Shown here: positions 27,731 through 50,772 of the stretch, piece after piece | Layout of the letters: every line of letters starts with the position of its first letter | How positions within the stretch are numbered: the first letter of the stretch is position 1 | Source: a phage | Reading direction: 5' to 3' (one strand) | DNA: 64,000 bases | Sequence record: PZ445439.1 | Program-made: the position numbers and the translations under genes | The notes under the pieces: model-generated | Databases searched by the model: none | What the model was told of the DNA's origin: nothing | Seen by the model: only the letters and a program-made list of their open reading frames with translations

Positions 27731-27757
27731 TTTCTGTTCCTCCGTAGTTGATAGTTG

Positions 27758-27789
27758 TATAGTACCACAGAGGAACAGTCTTGTAAACA
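27758..27789 (-). promoter_or_regulatory. Early promoter (-35 GTTTACA, -10 TACTAT)
   Basis: Repeat-family member. Confidence 0.6.
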
Positions 27790-29163: not shown

Positions 29164-29196
29164 TTTATTCTCCAAATCCGTATTAGTTGATAGTTG

Positions 29197-29228
29197 TATA
29201 GTACCATAAAGCTTTATGCGTGTAAACA
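29197..29228 (-). promoter_or_regulatory. Early promoter
   Basis: Repeat-family member upstream of the ATPase ORF. Confidence 0.6.
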
Positions 29229-32740: not shown

Positions 32741-32759
32741 GATGTTCTCCTCTTTATCT

Positions 32760-32789
32760 GATAGTTGTATAGTACCACAGCTCAAACGG
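32760..32789 (-). promoter_or_regulatory. Early promoter
   Basis: Repeat-family member. Confidence 0.6.
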
Positions 32790-32804
32790 AAAGTAAACCG
32801 GTAA

Positions 32805-39350: not shown

Positions 39351-39929
39351 TTAATTACCACGGGCTGCATTAGCAACGGCGTAAGCGTACTGAACATTAG
39401 CGTCCTTAAACGTACCTTTAGAGGTATCTATTTCTGCCTTAAAGCCGCCTTTAGCCATAACATCGGCAAATTCTTTACGGAAAGCCATTGCATCAAGACC
39501 TTTCCATGATGATTTGTGCTTGGCGAATTCAAGACCAGCGTAGTTGACAGCCTTAGCTAATTTATTATCAATGACCCATTTACCGGCTTTAGGCACAAAC
39601 TTCGGGCCTTTTTGTTTAGAGAACAGTTTTAAATTCCAGCGACGAAGATCACTGTCGGCTTTAACAAAAGCTGCGTCTAAGTTACTAGCAACAACATCTT
39701 CAATATGAGCAAATTTAAGTCCGTCAACTTCAATATTTAAATCGGTACGCCAGCGAAGTCCTTCCCAAGCGAAAGCTTTAAAATCGGAAGCTTTTGTAGC
39801 TAAGTATCGTTCAAGTGGAGCAGTTTTAGGGTCAAAGCCGTTTCCACCACGATAGTTCCACTCGTCCTTATTAATGCCTTTGGCCTTTACTACAGAAGCT
39901 TCAGCAATAAATTCTTGATACGTTTTCAT
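39351..39929 (-). CDS. ipIII: Internal protein III (capsid-targeted)
   Basis: 192 aa; N-terminal MKTYQEFIAE capsid-targeting sequence. Confidence 0.8.
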   Translation of the reverse strand: MKTYQEFIAEASVVKAKGINKDEWNYRGGNGFDPKTAPLERYLATKASDFKAFAWEGLRWRTDLNIEVDGLKFAHIEDVVASNLDAAFVKADSDLRRWNLKLFSKQKGPKFVPKAGKWVIDNKLAKAVNYAGLEFAKHKSSWKGLDAMAFRKEFADVMAKGGFKAEIDTSKGTFKDANVQYAYAVANAARGN

Positions 39930-39954
39930 TTTGTTCCTATTGATTTAATTTATG

Positions 39955-40269
39955 TTATTCTTTAGGGAAGTTTTTAGAGTATGCATCATAAAGTTTATTA
40001 CCGATGCGACGGAAGACTTTAGCTGCAAAACGGTTTTCAGGGTTTTTAATCATGATTTGCATCATGTAAGTTCCTGCATCCGAAAGAGCTTCTTCATAGT
40101 ACCCATTAATTTCTTTAAGAGTCCTACGTTTACCGCCAGGACCGTCAACAGTAATTTTCCATTTACCTGTAGAAGTGCGGCTCGGTGGCTCAACTTGTTC
40201 AATCCAAATATAACCACCTTCAACGCGTTGGTTGGCGGATTCTGCAATAAATTCTTGATACGTTTTCAT
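39955..40269 (-). CDS. ipII: Internal protein II-like (capsid-targeted)
   Basis: 104 aa; MKTYQEFIAE N-terminus. Confidence 0.7.
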   Translation of the reverse strand: MKTYQEFIAESANQRVEGGYIWIEQVEPPSRTSTGKWKITVDGPGGKRRTLKEINGYYEEALSDAGTYMMQIMIKNPENRFAAKVFRRIGNKLYDAYSKNFPKE

Positions 40270-40299
40270 TTTTGTTTCCTTGTTTGTTTTGATAGAGTA

Positions 40300-40329
40300 A
40301 TTATATCATATTAATACTTAAGCGTAAAC
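40300..40329 (-). promoter_or_regulatory. Early promoter (-35 GTTTAC, -10 GATATAAT)
   Basis: Upstream of ipII. Confidence 0.5.
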
Positions 40330-40332
40330 TGT

Positions 40333-40593
40333 TTAAGCTTTACCACCAGAAATAATTCCGAAGTTGTTAAAATCATATCCAATATCGTCAACATCTACTT
40401 TAGGGCTTGCTACAACATAAGCAATTTCACTACGTTTTGCATAGGTGTTTATTTCTCTACCATCGCCGCCTAGGAAAGAATACCCATTACGTTTTAATGA
40501 GCCAAAATCTTCGGCATCACCAACGAAAGCTTTAACTTTAAATTTGGGGCCTTTGGCATCTGCTTCAGCGATAAATTCTTGATACATTTTCAT
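40333..40593 (-). CDS. Additional internal-protein-like ORF with capsid-targeting N-terminus
   Basis: 86 aa; MKMYQEFIAE. Confidence 0.6.
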   Translation of the reverse strand: MKMYQEFIAEADAKGPKFKVKAFVGDAEDFGSLKRNGYSFLGGDGREINTYAKRSEIAYVVASPKVDVDDIGYDFNNFGIISGGKA

Positions 40594-40599
40594 TTTTCC

Positions 40600-41013
40600 T
40601 TAGTAAATTGATTTACCATAGTATTTGTACCAAGTAGGGCGTTGAGCAATTTTTTCATCTAAGCGAGCTTGACTTATCGCAATGGACGCTTCGGACGGGA
40701 CATAATTATTACGAAATTCGACAGGGATGTCGGAAATATCCTGGACAGTCGTGTCCTTGATTTTGAAACCACGTTTCAAGCATTCAGCGATTAGCTCGAT
40801 TTGACGTAAACGTAAAAATTCGAGTTTGTCGTAAAAGAATGTTACGTGACCTGTGCCTAAGATAAATGTTGGAGAGATTTTAAAATCCTTTACACGTTTA
40901 CCGTTTTGAACATGTTTACGGACTGCACCAAATACGCGTGGTAATTCACGATACTCAGCCATAAGATGTTGGTCGGTCAGTTCAGAAACAAGTGTTAAAT
41001 TGATACGAGTCAT
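40600..41013 (-). CDS. denV: Endonuclease V (pyrimidine dimer DNA glycosylase)
   Basis: 138 aa from [12 protein letters not shown]; matches recalled T4 DenV. Confidence 0.93.
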
Positions 41014-41038
41014 AATTTCCTCCAAGTAATTGATGAAT

Positions 41039-45370: not shown

Positions 45371-45503
45371 AGTTTTGTGAAAAAATTTTTAAAAAGTTTT
45401 GGGGAATTCTAGGGCAGGGAGAGGCAATTAAAGGATAGGATAATATATTATAAAGGGTAGAAACTAAATGATGCCTAGAGAGGCCCGGAAAGGCTTAGAT
45501 ACC

Positions 45504-45534
45504 AAAAAGCCCCAACCTTTCGGCTGAGGCTAAG
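45504..45534 (-). terminator. Terminator-like hairpin, copy 1 of a 31 bp direct repeat
   Basis: AAAAAGCCCCAACCTTTCGGCTGAGGCTAAG; one mismatch to copy at 46059. Confidence 0.55.
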
Positions 45535-46048: not shown

Positions 46049-46056
46049 TATTTATA
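46049..46056 (-). promoter_or_regulatory. Late promoter TATAAATA
   Basis: Upstream of ORF 45539..46012. Confidence 0.55.
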
Positions 46057-46058
46057 CT

Positions 46059-46089
46059 AAAAAGCCCCAACCTTTCGGCTGGGGCTAAG
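46059..46089 (-). terminator. Intrinsic terminator after the tRNA cluster (GNRA-loop hairpin plus U-run), copy 2 of the 31 bp repeat
   Basis: GCCCCAGCC-GAAA-GGUUGGGGC followed by UUUUU. Confidence 0.65.
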
Positions 46090-46402: not shown

Positions 46403-46479
<77 letters not shown>

Positions 46480-46482
46480 TAG

Positions 46483-47148
46483 TTAAAATTTCATTTTTCG
46501 ACCTTTAAACCATCCTTCTGGAATTGGGTCAGTTTTCTTAATACGTTTAGAAACTTTTTCATCTAATGAATGAATCCACATCATACCAAATTGGGAATTC
46601 TTTTCACCTTTTTGGTGATTATTTTTAGCATGAATTTCTTTCATTTTATTAATAGTTTCAGGAGTATGGGTCTTACCCAAGAAAGATTTAGTATTTAAAA
46701 ATTTCTCTCTATACTTAGGATTATCCCAAAGCTGTTTAAACCTTTCTGAACCCATTTTACGATATTTTTCTTTAAGGTCTGGGTCGTTCTCAAATCTGGT
46801 TTTAAAAGCAGCAGCCCCTTTTAAGGAAGCTTCTTTCTTTTTATCCAAATATTCTTTAGTGTTTAAATGGTCCCAACCACCTTCACCACCTAATTTCAAA
46901 TTATAAACATCAGGGCGCTTTAAAAACTCTTCAGTCAAAATATTCTTTTCTGACTCAAACATAGAGGTTTTATCGTCAAAGAACTCTAATATTTCTTTAG
47001 AGAAATTTTCTATACCATACTTGTCTTGGGCTCTTTTTAATAATTTACCAGAACCCATATATCCATCATCTAAATTTTCGGTAGAATGAGCGCCTATATA
47101 GATTTTATTATTAATTTTATTTGTTATTTTATAAGTGTAATGGAACAT
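46483..47148 (-). mobile_element. segB: GIY-YIG homing endonuclease SegB
   Basis: 221 aa; YTYKITNKINNKIYIGA motif; sits inside the tRNA cluster as T4 segB. Confidence 0.85.
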
Positions 47149-47189: not shown

Positions 47190-47261
47190 TGGCCCTGGGT
47201 GGAATTGAACCACCATCTGGCGATTATGAGTCGCTTGCTTGAACCTTCCAGCTACAGGGCC
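47190..47261 (-). tRNA. tRNA-Ile (anticodon CAU)
   Basis: Hand-folded; anticodon loop CUCAUAA. Confidence 0.75.
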
Positions 47262-47262
47262 T

Positions 47263-47338
47263 TGGTGCTGATTGACGGAATCGAACCGCCGACCTTCTCA
47301 TTACAAGTGAGTTGCTCTACCTACTGAGCTAAATCAGC
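47263..47338 (-). tRNA. tRNA-Thr (anticodon UGU)
   Basis: Hand-folded; anticodon loop CUUGUAA; CCA encoded. Confidence 0.8.
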
Positions 47339-47345
47339 GAAATTA

Positions 47346-47432
47346 CGGAGGCGATAGGATTTGAACCTATGAGTCGCCGGAGCGACTGCCGGTTTTCAAG
47401 ACCGGTGCATTAAACCACTCTGCCACGCCTCC
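47346..47432 (-). tRNA. tRNA-Ser (anticodon UGA), long variable arm
   Basis: Hand-folded; anticodon loop CUUGAAA. Confidence 0.8.
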
Positions 47433-47434
47433 AG

Positions 47435-47508
47435 TCTCCGTGGCAGGATTTGAACCTACGACATTCTGCTCCCAAAGCAGACGCTCTACCAAACTGAGCT
47501 ACACGGAG
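47435..47508 (-). tRNA. tRNA-Pro (anticodon UGG)
   Basis: Hand-folded; anticodon loop UUUGGGA. Confidence 0.8.
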
Positions 47509-47520
47509 TAAATTAAATTT

Positions 47521-47592
<72 letters not shown>

Positions 47593-47598
47593 AAACTT

Positions 47599-47685
47599 TG
47601 GTACGAGAAGTGGGACTCGAACCCACAAGGAAATCATTCCGCAGCATTTTAAGTGCTGTGCCTTTACCAATTTGACCATTCTCGC
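47599..47685 (-). tRNA. tRNA-Leu (anticodon UAA), long variable arm
   Basis: Hand-folded; anticodon loop CUUAAAA; CCA encoded. Confidence 0.8.
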
Positions 47686-47686
47686 G

Positions 47687-47759
47687 CTGGGAATAAAGGA
47701 CTCGAACCTTTGCATCTAGCAGTCAAAGTGCTATGCCTTACCAACTTGGCTAATTCCCA
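47687..47759 (-). tRNA. tRNA-Gln (anticodon UUG)
   Basis: Hand-folded; anticodon loop CUUUGAC. Confidence 0.8.
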
Positions 47760-47845: not shown

Positions 47846-48361
47846 TTAAAGCAAATTAAACATTTTAACGGTCGGCAAAACAATTTCTTTTTCTATATAA
47901 GAGTATTTAACACTCTCAACTACACGCAAAAAATCATAATCATAATACTCAGAAGCACTGCCTAAAATATTAATAAGTCCTTCAAGCACTTTATTACCAT
48001 TCACAAAGAATAAGTCAAATACACGTTCTTCGTCTTCTTCGGATTTATTACCAAGGTCAACTTCTATGTCAAAGACCTTTTTAATGAATTCTGGATAAAG
48101 TTGTTCTGAGAACAGTCCTTCAACCAAGTATTCATAAATAAAAAGCGATTGCTCGCTGAACAAGCCATTACCACAATAACGTTCAGCTTTAGTACTAGAA
48201 TGTCTACTTTTAAACTTCTTTAAAAGATATTGAAATTGTAAGATTTCATGCTCTTCTACGCCAAACAGTGTTTTAGTTTTATAGTTGTCACCATCATTTT
48301 CCCAGGTAGTGACATCAATTACGTAACCCTGTGGAATTGTAGTACCTAAACAAATATTCAT
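47846..48361 (-). CDS. Hypothetical protein
   Basis: 171 aa ORF. Confidence 0.55.
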   Translation of the reverse strand: MNICLGTTIPQGYVIDVTTWENDGDNYKTKTLFGVEEHEILQFQYLLKKFKSRHSSTKAERYCGNGLFSEQSLFIYEYLVEGLFSEQLYPEFIKKVFDIEVDLGNKSEEDEERVFDLFFVNGNKVLEGLINILGSASEYYDYDFLRVVESVKYSYIEKEIVLPTVKMFNLL

Positions 48362-48651
48362 TTGCTCACCATATTAATGTAAGTATATTCAATACATTCA
48401 AGACCCAAAGGATTCTTGAAAATATCATATTCAAGAGGACCTTTTTCCGTTTCAATAAAGAAATCAAAATTTACTGTATTAAATTTACGGTCTTCCTTCA
48501 CTAATTTAACCTGAGAAGATGAACGGTCAATGTAAACCTTTTCAACTTCAAAACATGTTAAAATGCCATAATCATCAATCAAGGCTTTAGCTGCTTCTTG
48601 ATCATATTTATATCCATTTTCAATGGATGATACTTTAGCATAAAGAATCAT
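48358..48651 (-). CDS. Hypothetical protein
   Basis: Track ORF begins with GTG; ATG at 48651; its 5' end is one copy of a 26 bp direct repeat. Confidence 0.5.
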   Translation of the reverse strand: MILYAKVSSIENGYKYDQEAAKALIDDYGILTCFEVEKVYIDRSSSQVKLVKEDRKFNTVNFDFFIETEKGPLEYDIFKNPLGLECIEYTYINMVSK

Positions 48652-48653
48652 TA

Positions 48654-49034
48654 TCACACTCCGTAGTCTATCTTGACCAATCTACCTTTGTAGTAGCCAA
48701 AGTTCTTTGGAAAGGCATCATACTCAAAGAAATCACGGTCAAGCGTTCTGCATTCATCACCATCAACATCATTATAGAGCTTTTGCAAATCAGATTTAAA
48801 AAGCTCCTTATCCTCAACTGGCTCTGCTTTGTGCATCACAACCATGAGACCAAATCTGTTTGAGTATGCTATTGGGCATAGGTGCTTGTTATCATACCCC
48901 TTCCACTGACCTTCTGTAAGATTGCTGAGCATACCCTGCACGAAGTGTTTCCATGTCTTGGGGATAGGGAATTTAATAGCATACTTACGTGTTAGTAGTA
49001 CCCATCTGGTTCCACCCGATTTAATTAATTTCAT
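48654..49034 (-). CDS. Hypothetical protein bracketed by 26 bp direct repeats
   Basis: 126 aa; N-terminus KSGGTRWV...YAIKF weakly resembles a nucleotide-binding Gly loop. Confidence 0.5.
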   Translation of the reverse strand: MKLIKSGGTRWVLLTRKYAIKFPIPKTWKHFVQGMLSNLTEGQWKGYDNKHLCPIAYSNRFGLMVVMHKAEPVEDKELFKSDLQKLYNDVDGDECRTLDRDFFEYDAFPKNFGYYKGRLVKIDYGV

Positions 49035-49108
49035 AGTCTCAGCTACCTCAATATTAATTTAAGCAATATCATTCCTATAAGGTAGTACTTTAGCATAAAG
49101 AATCATTA

Positions 49109-49519
49109 TCAGCCTCTATCAACGATAGCATGAGTATGGGCATTTACGATTTGCCACCAGTCGAAACGATTGGAACCATAATCTGGTTTATTTTCATTTT
49201 CTTTAATGATATCACGCAATTTATCTTCTGTTTCAGCATACGCAATTAAATCATCATATCCACCACAAGGATAATAATTATCACCTGCGAATAAAAGAAA
49301 ATTTACCTTAGATGGATTTACGTAATAATGGTCTTTAGGATATTTAGTTCCTCTCCAATCAGTTACTTCAACATAACGGTAAGAAAATCCATTTTTACTT
49401 TCAATCCAACTCCACGCTTCAAAAGGAGTATTAAAAACTTTATCAGGTATTAAATTACCTTCAAAATGAGAAGGATTTGCATAATCCCCGGCATAAACAT
49501 AATATTCGTTAATACTCAT
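49109..49519 (-). CDS. Hypothetical protein
   Basis: 136 aa ORF. Confidence 0.55.
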   Translation of the reverse strand: MSINEYYVYAGDYANPSHFEGNLIPDKVFNTPFEAWSWIESKNGFSYRYVEVTDWRGTKYPKDHYYVNPSKVNFLLFAGDNYYPCGGYDDLIAYAETEDKLRDIIKENENKPDYGSNRFDWWQIVNAHTHAIVDRG

Positions 49520-49705: not shown

Positions 49706-49734
49706 TTTATTCTCCTCAGTAGTTGATAGGGTAA

Positions 49735-49763
49735 TAGTATCACTACCCTATCTAAAAGTAAAC
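49735..49763 (-). promoter_or_regulatory. Early promoter embedded in a 9 bp inverted repeat (GATAGGGTA...TACCCTATC)
   Basis: -35 GTTTAC, -10 GATACTAT; perfect palindrome arms at 49725..49752. Confidence 0.5.
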
Positions 49764-49997
49764 TCATTTTTTACGAAAAATTGATTTATTTTCTGCTGCC
49801 CATTTTTCAATAACTGCAGCCGGACCAGTAACAACAATTTTATCACCGTAATCTTCTGCGGCGAGTTGACCGAAATCATCTAATGCATCACGAAGAACTC
49901 CATGAGGCATTTCACCCATTTTATCTTTCTTGCCAGTGTAAATAAACTCAACTTTTACATCAGCAGTTTCAGCAATAAATTCTTGATACGTTTTCAT
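49764..49997 (-). CDS. Internal protein at the ipI locus (capsid-targeted; short variant)
   Basis: MKTYQEFIAE N-terminus; 77 aa from that ATG. Confidence 0.6.
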   Translation of the reverse strand: MKTYQEFIAETADVKVEFIYTGKKDKMGEMPHGVLRDALDDFGQLAAEDYGDKIVVTGPAAVIEKWAAENKSIFRKK

Positions 49998-50024
49998 TTT
50001 GTTCTCCAATTTCACATTTGTTTT

Positions 50025-50054
50025 GATAGGGTAATAGTATCACTACTAAAACCC
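50025..50054 (-). promoter_or_regulatory. Early promoter
   Basis: Near-duplicate of the 49735 promoter, upstream of the ipI-locus ORF. Confidence 0.5.
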
Positions 50055-50075
50055 CATGTAAACAACTTTGTGAAA

Positions 50076-50772
<697 letters not shown>

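Follow-up and report, generated by a model that had tools for sequence, protein, structure and literature searches.

The window analysed here is a 64,000-nucleotide (nt) stretch of a T4-like phage of the Tequatrovirus type (sequence record PZ445439.1), and our subject is a 126-codon open reading frame (ORF), ORF126, that lies on its minus strand between the resident genes tRNA.3 and tRNA.2. Our analysis makes it likely that ORF126 is a foreign accessory gene that was inserted precisely in the stop/start junction of these two genes via two short homologies, that it has spread since, and that its product is kinase-like. That the insertion duplicated the tRNA.3/tRNA.2 junction is supported by comparison of empty and occupied sites; because of this duplication the event would have been harmless to the neighbouring genes. 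The elements that carry the argument, in the order in which they are read, are as follows.

49109..49519, minus strand: tRNA.3 (Pfam Phage_T4_Y07C), of 136 amino acids (aa), the resident neighbour on the upstream side of the insertion.
49086..49111, minus strand: upper copy of a 26-base-pair (bp) repeat, comprising the tRNA.3 stop TGA (49109-49111), 2 nt, and ATG plus six codons of the duplicated tRNA.2 start; an exact match, aligned to occupied and empty genomes.
49059..49106, minus strand: 15-codon remnant ORF, MILYAKVLPYRNDIA*, with codons 1-7 the duplicated tRNA.2 start and the rest donor-derived, as read from translation and from alignment to phage phi G17.
49035..49085, minus strand: foreign leader of ORF126, in which the 15-codon remnant ends (its final eight codons and stop, LPYRNDIA*) and which contains a Shine-Dalgarno GAGG (49046-49049).
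48654..49034, minus strand: ORF126, 126 aa, phrog_4301, a predicted minimal protein-kinase-like domain.
48631..48656, minus strand: lower copy of the 26-bp repeat, comprising the ORF126 stop TGA (48654-48656), 2 nt, and the genuine tRNA.2 start (ATG 48651-48649).
48358..48651, minus strand: tRNA.2 (Pfam Phage_T4_Y07B), of 97 aa, the resident neighbour on the downstream side of the insertion, with an intact start.

The tRNA.2 frame can be extended to a GTG two codons upstream (99 aa); the ATG start (97 aa) is the one used in annotated relatives.

The first-pass annotation of this DNA had proposed much of this arrangement: a perfect 26-bp direct repeat, each copy of which fuses a gene end to the next gene start on the minus strand; a lower copy that begins the 97-aa ORF and an upper copy that begins a 15-codon remnant only; and, between them, a 126-aa ORF inserted by recombination that duplicated the junction. 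The sequence and its translation bear out the first three of these claims. The repeat, TACTTTAGCATAAAGAATCATTATCA, occurs in exactly two copies in the window, 455 bp apart, and read on the minus strand each is TGA-TA-ATGATTCTTTATGCTAAAGTA. Of the two findings that the same annotation had named as counting against it, the first – that the repeat is a motif common throughout the genome – is not what we see: the copy number stays at two with up to three mismatches allowed, and 100 dinucleotide-preserving shuffles gave an expectation of 0.00 matches.

Support for the fourth claim, that of insertion, comes from relatives. With a 1.3-kb query spanning the locus, matches were obtained in 632 phage records, nine of which, representing seven distinct phages (QOTSP, ESh17, PhiZZ30, EL, G10400, G4507 and ECP52), cover the insert; the remaining records match in two pieces that together span 455 bp less. 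When a synthetic 55-nt empty junction was used instead, it was covered at 80% or more in 482 GenBank phage records. Alignment of R5505 and RB32 shows tRNA.3 followed directly by tRNA.2, with exactly one 26-mer and 455 bp fewer, and the single-copy junction is found also in T6 and PST. The empty junction that the annotation had predicted, and whose absence from every genome was the second finding that would have counted against it, has the 136-aa ORF running directly into the 97-aa ORF and is thus the common state (approximately 480 GenBank records), and the occupied site is confined to nine. The 455-bp unit is additionally present in metagenomic contigs, and an index of public assemblies has the exact ORF126 protein in 79 blocks, with an identical insertion site at every locus read.

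ORF126 also looks foreign to T4-like phages. Its G+C content at third codon positions is 0.44 compared with 0.11-0.26 for its neighbours and a window mean of 0.26 (sd 0.08; ORFs of at least 100 aa). Homologues with 61-79% aa identity occur in unrelated phages of Escherichia, Shigella and Salmonella – A5-4 (Vequintavirinae), phi G17 and Moonfish (N4-like Schitoviridae), GaoY1-9D (50 kb) and Salmonella phages of 85-90 kb – with remoter ones in jumbo phages of Escherichia, Erwinia, Aeromonas and Pseudomonas, and metagenomic relatives reach 85% identity. The homology to phi G17 is the most telling, in that it covers ORF126 together with 51 bp upstream: the local alignment runs from 49091 to 48646, that is, 6 nt into the upper repeat copy and 11 nt into the lower. 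Over the 59 nt upstream of ORF126, which include 8 repeat bases (CTAAAGTA), 42 of 59 positions are identical to phi G17, as against 14 of 59 – chance level – in the adjacent 59-nt control. The last eight codons and stop of the 15-codon remnant are therefore donor sequence; this tail reads LPYRNDIA* in the window and PSYRTGNV* in phi G17. At the other end, a stop-2 nt-ATG junction follows the homologue in phi G17, in A5-4 and in two further loci (L031 and L021), an architecture that is the same as that of the T4 tRNA.3/tRNA.2 junction. Across the seven homologue contexts compared in other phages we found no common flanking sequence except the phi G17 leader. As a separate observation, the homologue and a small downstream gene (beginning ATGAATATC...; MNI...) occur together in the Vequintavirinae phage A5-4 (L005, 2384-2620) and in L031, a metagenomic phage contig of approximately 48 kb (1884-2102), which suggests a two-gene module that travels between phage families.

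The borders of the donor-type homology fall on two short stretches shared by donor-type and T4-type sequence.

49086..49091, minus strand: left joint microhomology AAAGTA, where donor-type homology starts in the upper copy (alignment start 49091).
48646..48656, minus strand: right joint microhomology TGATAATGATT, where donor-type homology ends in the lower copy (alignment end 48646); donor-type loci here read TGActATGATT (phi G17) or TGActATGAAT.

A simple scheme would account for these borders. The donor would have been another coliphage with a locus like that of N4-like phi G17, having a leader of approximately 50 nt before the gene and a stop-2 nt-ATG after it. The T4-type genome would have been left at AAAGTA (junction positions 21-26) and re-entered at TGAnnATGATT (junction positions 1-11), whether by copy-choice template switching or by two illegitimate crossovers; since re-entry lies upstream of exit, the 26 bases between the joints would be duplicated. 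Two staggered microhomology joints of this kind suggest how the duplication could be made while translational coupling was retained. All coding junctions would be intact in the product: tRNA.3 ends normally, the remnant, begun at the former tRNA.2 ATG, terminates 24 nt short of ORF126, and ORF126 would have its own Shine-Dalgarno sequence, with its stop restoring the TGA-TA-ATG coupling to tRNA.2.

Several points weigh against so exact a reconstruction. The joint positions are read from a relative, phi G17, that is approximately 74% identical, and the shared stretches at the joints amount to no more than 5 of 6 and 9 of 11 bases, stop and start codons partly dictating one of the two. A closer donor did not emerge from an exact-pattern leader scan of IMG/VR and metagenome contigs, and protein-guided locus searches gave nothing in IMG/VR and only remoter relatives in metagenomes; the donor context thus comes from phi G17 alone. 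Contigs encoding 80-85% identical proteins (L009, L012 and L031-L033) have unrelated upstream sequence. Finally, the primary state of the repeat pair could be either the perfect T/T pair of the window or the common C/T plus T/A pair (alleles at two positions of the repeat, set out below).

What, then, was acquired? ORF126 matches a single profile, phrog_4301 (E 2.8e-28, residues 1-125), which 69 of 69 divergent relatives match as well (best E 8e-44); one of these has in addition a marginal hit (E 8e-4) to the unnamed phrog_11590. The family is large and uncharacterised: an exhaustive profile search gives 1019 clusters at E<=1e-3, with 420 remaining at E<=1e-10, and our literature search found no description of a phrog_4301-type protein family or of the insertion. 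An AlphaFold2 model of ORF126 (pLDDT 91, pTM 0.79) has three strands, a helix, two strands, a long helix, a short helix and two strands, in that order, and matches protein-kinase-like folds almost exclusively, with listed figures of 8.3 for APH(2''), 7.6 for JAK, 7.4 for PknB, 7.0 for Rio2, 6.8 for Bud32, 6.7 for Ark1 and 5.8 for OspG. The nearest viral models (BFVD) include proteins named protein kinase, and one homologue is annotated with a kinase catalytic domain. The model displays the architecture of a kinase N-lobe, an antiparallel sheet of five strands in which helix C comes between the third and the fourth; after this come helix D/E, a catalytic loop, strands 7-8 and a Mg-binding loop.

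Conservation points in the same direction. A faint resemblance of the N-terminus to a nucleotide-binding glycine loop followed by a catalytic Lys had been remarked on in the first-pass annotation, and the Lys of that hint is borne out; the loop itself is atypical. Among the 149 best divergent representatives (median length 124 aa), G7, R10, K21 and E41 are invariant (149/149) and T9 is kept in 83%; secondary structure of the model puts K21, within Y-A-I-K-F, in strand 3 and E41 in helix C. Towards the C-terminus ORF126 has a catalytic loop D106-x4-N111 and D123-Y-G at canonical spacing, corresponding to a family consensus [D/E]-x-K-P-x-[N/S]-F-G...V-x-[IVL]-D-Y-G in which D123 is present in all aligned members. 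The protein ends one residue after D-Y-G, and in 79% of the 127 representatives with the motif DxG lies no more than three residues from the end. The top five sequence hits in the PDB fall short of significance (E 0.5-1.3); CK1 chains make up four of them, their alignments falling exactly on the catalytic loop and DFG. On the model, ORF126 is best described as a predicted kinase-like domain of Hanks subdomains I-VII only, that is, N-lobe, catalytic loop and DFG-like motif. Most likely it would bind ATP and transfer phosphate, with a partner probably replacing the missing C-lobe.

The case for a kinase has its weaknesses, and they are of two kinds. In sequence searches, no Pfam kinase family (Pkinase, RIO1, APH and Kdo included) matched ORF126 or the 69 divergent relatives at E<=0.1, NCBIfam gave no match to ORF126 and a PDB profile search none that was significant; the assignment draws on predicted fold and motifs, and although all of the top 50 Foldseek PDB hits are kinases, their E-values are modest (6e-3 to 4e-2). 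In the protein itself, the glycine loop is S-G-G-T-R rather than GxGxxG, with G7 its sole invariant glycine; the catalytic-loop Lys is displaced in the clade of ORF126 (D-A-F-P-K-N, with Lys at 110 and not 108); and the core of the C-lobe – activation segment, helix F and later helices – is absent. Because the part after DFG, helix F included, is missing, the protein could be a pseudokinase, an ATP-binding regulator or a small-molecule kinase. We hold it possible, if somewhat doubtful, that ORF126 is no active protein kinase: a pseudokinase or ATP-binding decoy, a small-molecule or nucleic-acid kinase in the manner of APH or ArkI, or a binding module. Set against this is the retention of K21, E41, D/E106, N/S111 and D123 in approximately 150 divergent clusters, which would be unusual for pseudokinases, and the family consensus D-x-K-P-x-N-F-G is the form of catalytic loop found in Ser/Thr protein kinases. 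Moreover, OspG and NleH, which lack Hanks subdomains VIII-XI, are active, partner-activated kinases (PMC12756638), and this makes activity of ORF126 plausible.

Returning to the insertion, its history since the primary event can be followed in the genomes that carry it. The insert is 98.5-100% identical, with identical junctions, across genomes with differing neighbour modules (the 171-aa ORF downstream of tRNA.2 is absent in four insert-bearing genomes, and the internal-protein genes differ among them), and this argues for one primary event followed by spread. A finer record is left in the repeats. Perfect identity of the two copies (26/26) is unique to the window phage; in 14 of 14 other occupied genomes they differ at one or two of the 26 positions. 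Scored at positions 4/20 of the 26-mer on the minus strand, the alleles are as follows.

12 occupied genomes: upper copy C/T, lower copy T/A.
2 occupied genomes (L035 and L037): upper copy T/G, lower copy T/A.
Window phage, occupied: upper copy T/T, lower copy T/T.
R5505, empty: single copy T/T.
T6 and PST, empty: single copy T/A.
LF82-9, empty: single copy C/A.

The alleles of the repeat copies in the 14 other occupied genomes occur at empty sites, and the empty junction of RB32 has G at position 20. The flanks of the window are 99-100% identical to R5505 on both sides, up to the repeats. Together, allele patterns and R5505-like flanks indicate that exchange between occupied and empty sites has repeatedly ended in the last ~20 bp beside the insert. 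The C4/A20 allele at an empty junction was found in one record only, LF82-9 (L018, PV660452.1); this carries the label Mosigvirus, although from tRNA.4 to tRNA.2 it shares 97.6% identity with the window. A junction-allele scan of IMG/VR returned one locus only.

Two mechanisms fit this clustering of endpoints: ordinary homologous recombination in the flanks, or excision and re-integration of a 455-bp circle. The second, which we judge unlikely, would make of the insert a mini-circle cassette, the 26-bp repeats recombining to release a circle of ORF126 plus one chimeric repeat that re-integrates elsewhere by a single crossover. Its appeal is that each allele pattern would follow from one crossover: if a T4/T20 circle integrates into a C4/A20 target, the allele of LF82-9, by a crossover that falls between positions 4 and 20, the outcome is upper C/T and lower T/A, while a circle excised from the common state between the same positions is T/T and, on entering an R5505-like T/T target, gives the state of the window. 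LF82-9 has the reciprocal C4/A20 empty site that is predicted, in flanks similar to those of ESh17, an occupied phage, and single-ORF circles between direct repeats have been shown experimentally in T4-type phages (PMC2839356). Against this, ordinary homologous recombination in kb-long flanks could yield the same patterns: recombination among T-even phages is frequent enough that it could erode linkage around the insert to tens of bp, branch migration stalled at heterology would likewise concentrate endpoints, and the flank haplotypes of occupied genomes already diverge within 10-40 bp of the repeats. A repeat of 26 bp is, moreover, said to be short for efficient homologous recombination in T4 (Singer et al. 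1982). On the account that we favour, the 455-bp unit has been, since its insertion, a rare presence/absence polymorphism in Tequatrovirus that would be moved by homologous recombination with endpoints in or at the repeats. The repeats would also permit precise excision, and the window genome, being alone in its perfect 26/26 identity, should offer the best substrate for precise deletion: the pair amounts to a built-in test system in which deletion is expected at a measurable rate.

Deletion between the repeats raises the converse history, in which occupied sites came first and the empty junctions are the outcome of repeated loss. Direct repeats 455 bp apart are indeed a substrate for deletion, and LF82-9 could be such a product; we nonetheless consider this history very improbable and reject it. 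A truncated duplicate of a gene start can arise only by duplication, not by deletion; the codon composition of ORF126 is foreign and its leader shares homology with a locus of an N4-like phage; there are ~480 empty sites to nine occupied ones, and the empty ones are found in divergent lineages with diverse junction alleles (RB32, T6 and PST); and the copies of the insert are uniform (98.5-100% identical) where flanks differ by up to ~8%. Least credible of all, and likewise rejected, is a transposon-like or homing element that inserted itself and left the 26-bp repeat as a target-site duplication made by its own enzyme, for although a single ORF stands between direct repeats with the GIY-YIG gene segB 1.5 kb away, the insert has no terminal inverted repeats, ORF126 matches no nuclease, transposase or integrase family in Pfam, PHROGs, NCBIfam or PADLOC (where it has no hit of any kind) and has a kinase-like fold, and the insert occupies one site in all Tequatrovirus carriers and unrelated contexts in other phages.

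The setting of the insertion bears on how ORF126 might be expressed. On the minus strand the gene order is gene 1 (deoxynucleoside monophosphate kinase), 57A, 57B (Pfam Acb1), an ipI-like internal-protein gene and tRNA.4 (61 aa), and then tRNA.3, ORF126, tRNA.2, a 171-aa ORF, seven tRNA genes and a segB-like GIY-YIG gene. A candidate promoter element stands within this run.

49723..49763, minus strand: early-promoter-like cassette GTTTAC-N17-TACTAT, upstream of tRNA.4 and belonging to a repeat family.

A scan of the region found no terminator-like element inside the 26-mer; the 51-bp leader that separates the upper copy from the start of ORF126 has neither promoter-like nor terminator-like sites. 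A weak sigma-70-like match (9/12) lies at 48679-48650, with its second hexamer within the lower copy; promoter-like matches in the region are no commoner than in shuffles. The cassette at 49723-49763 probably serves as promoter for the operon in which ORF126 now lies; given that the leader has no promoter-like site and that this is the nearest early-promoter-like cassette, ORF126 is probably expressed early within the tRNA.4-tRNA.3-tRNA.2 operon.

The same 41-nt cassette has a sister copy that scores as sigma-70-like at 50062-50034, and the pair (49723-49763 and 50023-50063, 80% identical) brackets the ipI-like gene at 49764-50015. In the record of RB32 the equivalent Ip7/Ip9 arrangement is labelled 'flanked by 43 bp direct repeat'. 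This pair looks like a promoter/stem-loop (PeSL) type of cassette adjoining the ORF126 locus.

Other features of the neighbourhood are variable in their own right. The 171-aa ORF downstream of tRNA.2 (47846-48361; phrog_2290, function unassigned) is itself a presence/absence polymorphism: it is missing in PhiZZ30, EL, G10400, ECP52, T6 and PST, and QOTSP has other ORFs in its place. The segB-like homing-endonuclease ORF (46483-47148) lies within a tRNA array, between a tRNA-Arg gene at 46403-46479 and the seven tRNAs at 47190-47759, and in the near-identical empty-site phage R5505 the stretch that was read shows no segB and 11 or more tRNA genes. Through co-conversion driven by homing, segB might have helped the nearby ORF126 to spread. 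In precomputed annotation of identical neighbours, 57B (50076-50531) carries Pfam Acb1 (anti-CBASS), which places the insertion in a region rich in counter-defence genes.

Further repeats and genes were noted elsewhere in the window. A 45-nt promoter-like repeat (TAGTTGATAGTTGTATAGTACCA...GTAAACA) occurs at 27745-27789, 29184-29228 and 32755-32799, the copies being 73-80% identical and probably representing repeated early promoters. Three tandem internal-protein genes (192, 104 and 86 aa; 39351-40593) share the N-terminus MK(T/M)YQEFIAE, visible as a 69-nt repeat, and adjoin a denV-like ORF at 40600-41025. A G+C-rich, terminator-like hairpin of 36 nt, ATACCAAAAAGCCCCAACCTTTCGGCTGAGGCTAAG, is found at 45499-45534 and 46054-46089, 555 bp apart and with 94% identity.

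As to the role of ORF126, family members sit among small early genes in all contexts, with no conserved partner gene alongside the family across the phage contexts compared, and the T4-like site lies in a variable region with Acb1/57B and internal proteins. Our best guess, by analogy, is that the protein may act early, in host takeover or counter-defence, and its place among counter-defence genes (Acb1/57B and the internal proteins) makes a counter-defence role worth testing. A more sweeping proposal is that phrog_4301 proteins are active protein kinases of ~124 aa, consisting of subdomains I-VII, completed in trans by a partner from host or phage and serving as early takeover or counter-defence effectors, with the T4-like cassette excising as a mini-circle and passing from genome to genome; we think it improbable that all of this will hold together.

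Comparison with known systems helps to place both the product and the event. The kinase of T7 (T7K, gp0.7) broadly disarms bacterial defences by phosphorylation, and its homologues carry DPV where DFG would stand, their domain is larger and a shut-off domain is often present (PMC13645617). As is predicted for ORF126, T7K gp0.7 and JSS1_004 are early phage proteins with a kinase fold, and so provide a precedent for an early phage kinase. They belong, however, to a different family: ORF126 has D-Y-G, phrog_4301 as its only significant match and no extra domain, and is not of the T7K type. If its activity is confirmed, phrog_4301 would add a new class to the phage kinases that disarm bacterial defences. 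OspG and NleH offer a parallel in domain content; but the OspG chain has 169 residues to the 126 of ORF126 (~40 more), OspG and NleH are secreted effectors and ORF126 a phage protein whose activity is a prediction from the model, and PDB profile searches with ORF126 did not retrieve OspG, there being no detectable sequence relationship. ArkI/Ark1 are small archaeal RNA kinases, acting as tRNA U47 2'-kinases (PMC9095486). The position of ORF126 beside the phage tRNA cluster is specific to the T4-like insertion and not common to homologues elsewhere; no sequence relationship was found, and ORF126 is ~50 residues shorter. Should it prove active, ORF126 would be a good deal smaller than the other minimal kinases in this comparison (OspG/NleH and ArkI), and would call into question whether a kinase core must have helix F and the C-lobe in order to function.

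With respect to the event, ORF cassettes flanked by PeSLs, and mini-circles derived from them, are known from T4-type phages (Arbiol et al. 2010, PMC2839356; Comeau et al. 2014, PMC4122927), the mini-circles having been shown for RB49 and phi1. The ORF126 locus shares with them a single accessory ORF in a hyperplastic early region, short direct repeats, presence/absence among close relatives, and one copy at the empty site, and promoter-type cassettes of the PeSL kind are present elsewhere in the window, around the ipI-like gene. The 26-mer, however, is a duplicated coding junction (stop, 2 nt, seven codons) and not a promoter/stem-loop cassette; it has two copies only in the window, and it would owe its existence to the insertion and not to a dispersed motif already in place, so that the ORF126 locus is not of the PeSL type. 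It also resembles moron acquisition, with a gene of foreign composition between undisturbed resident genes and joints at a few shared bases; it differs from it in that the joints would be staggered, giving a 26-bp target duplication, and in that ORF126, without promoter or terminator of its own, would rely on the host operon and on coupling. The mechanism of insertion would be a variant of the modular shuffling and moron acquisition already known in T4-type phages, for which this locus – with empty, occupied and donor-type loci to hand, and joints legible at base resolution – would, if confirmed, provide an unusually clean natural record of a T4-like phage gaining a gene from an unrelated phage.

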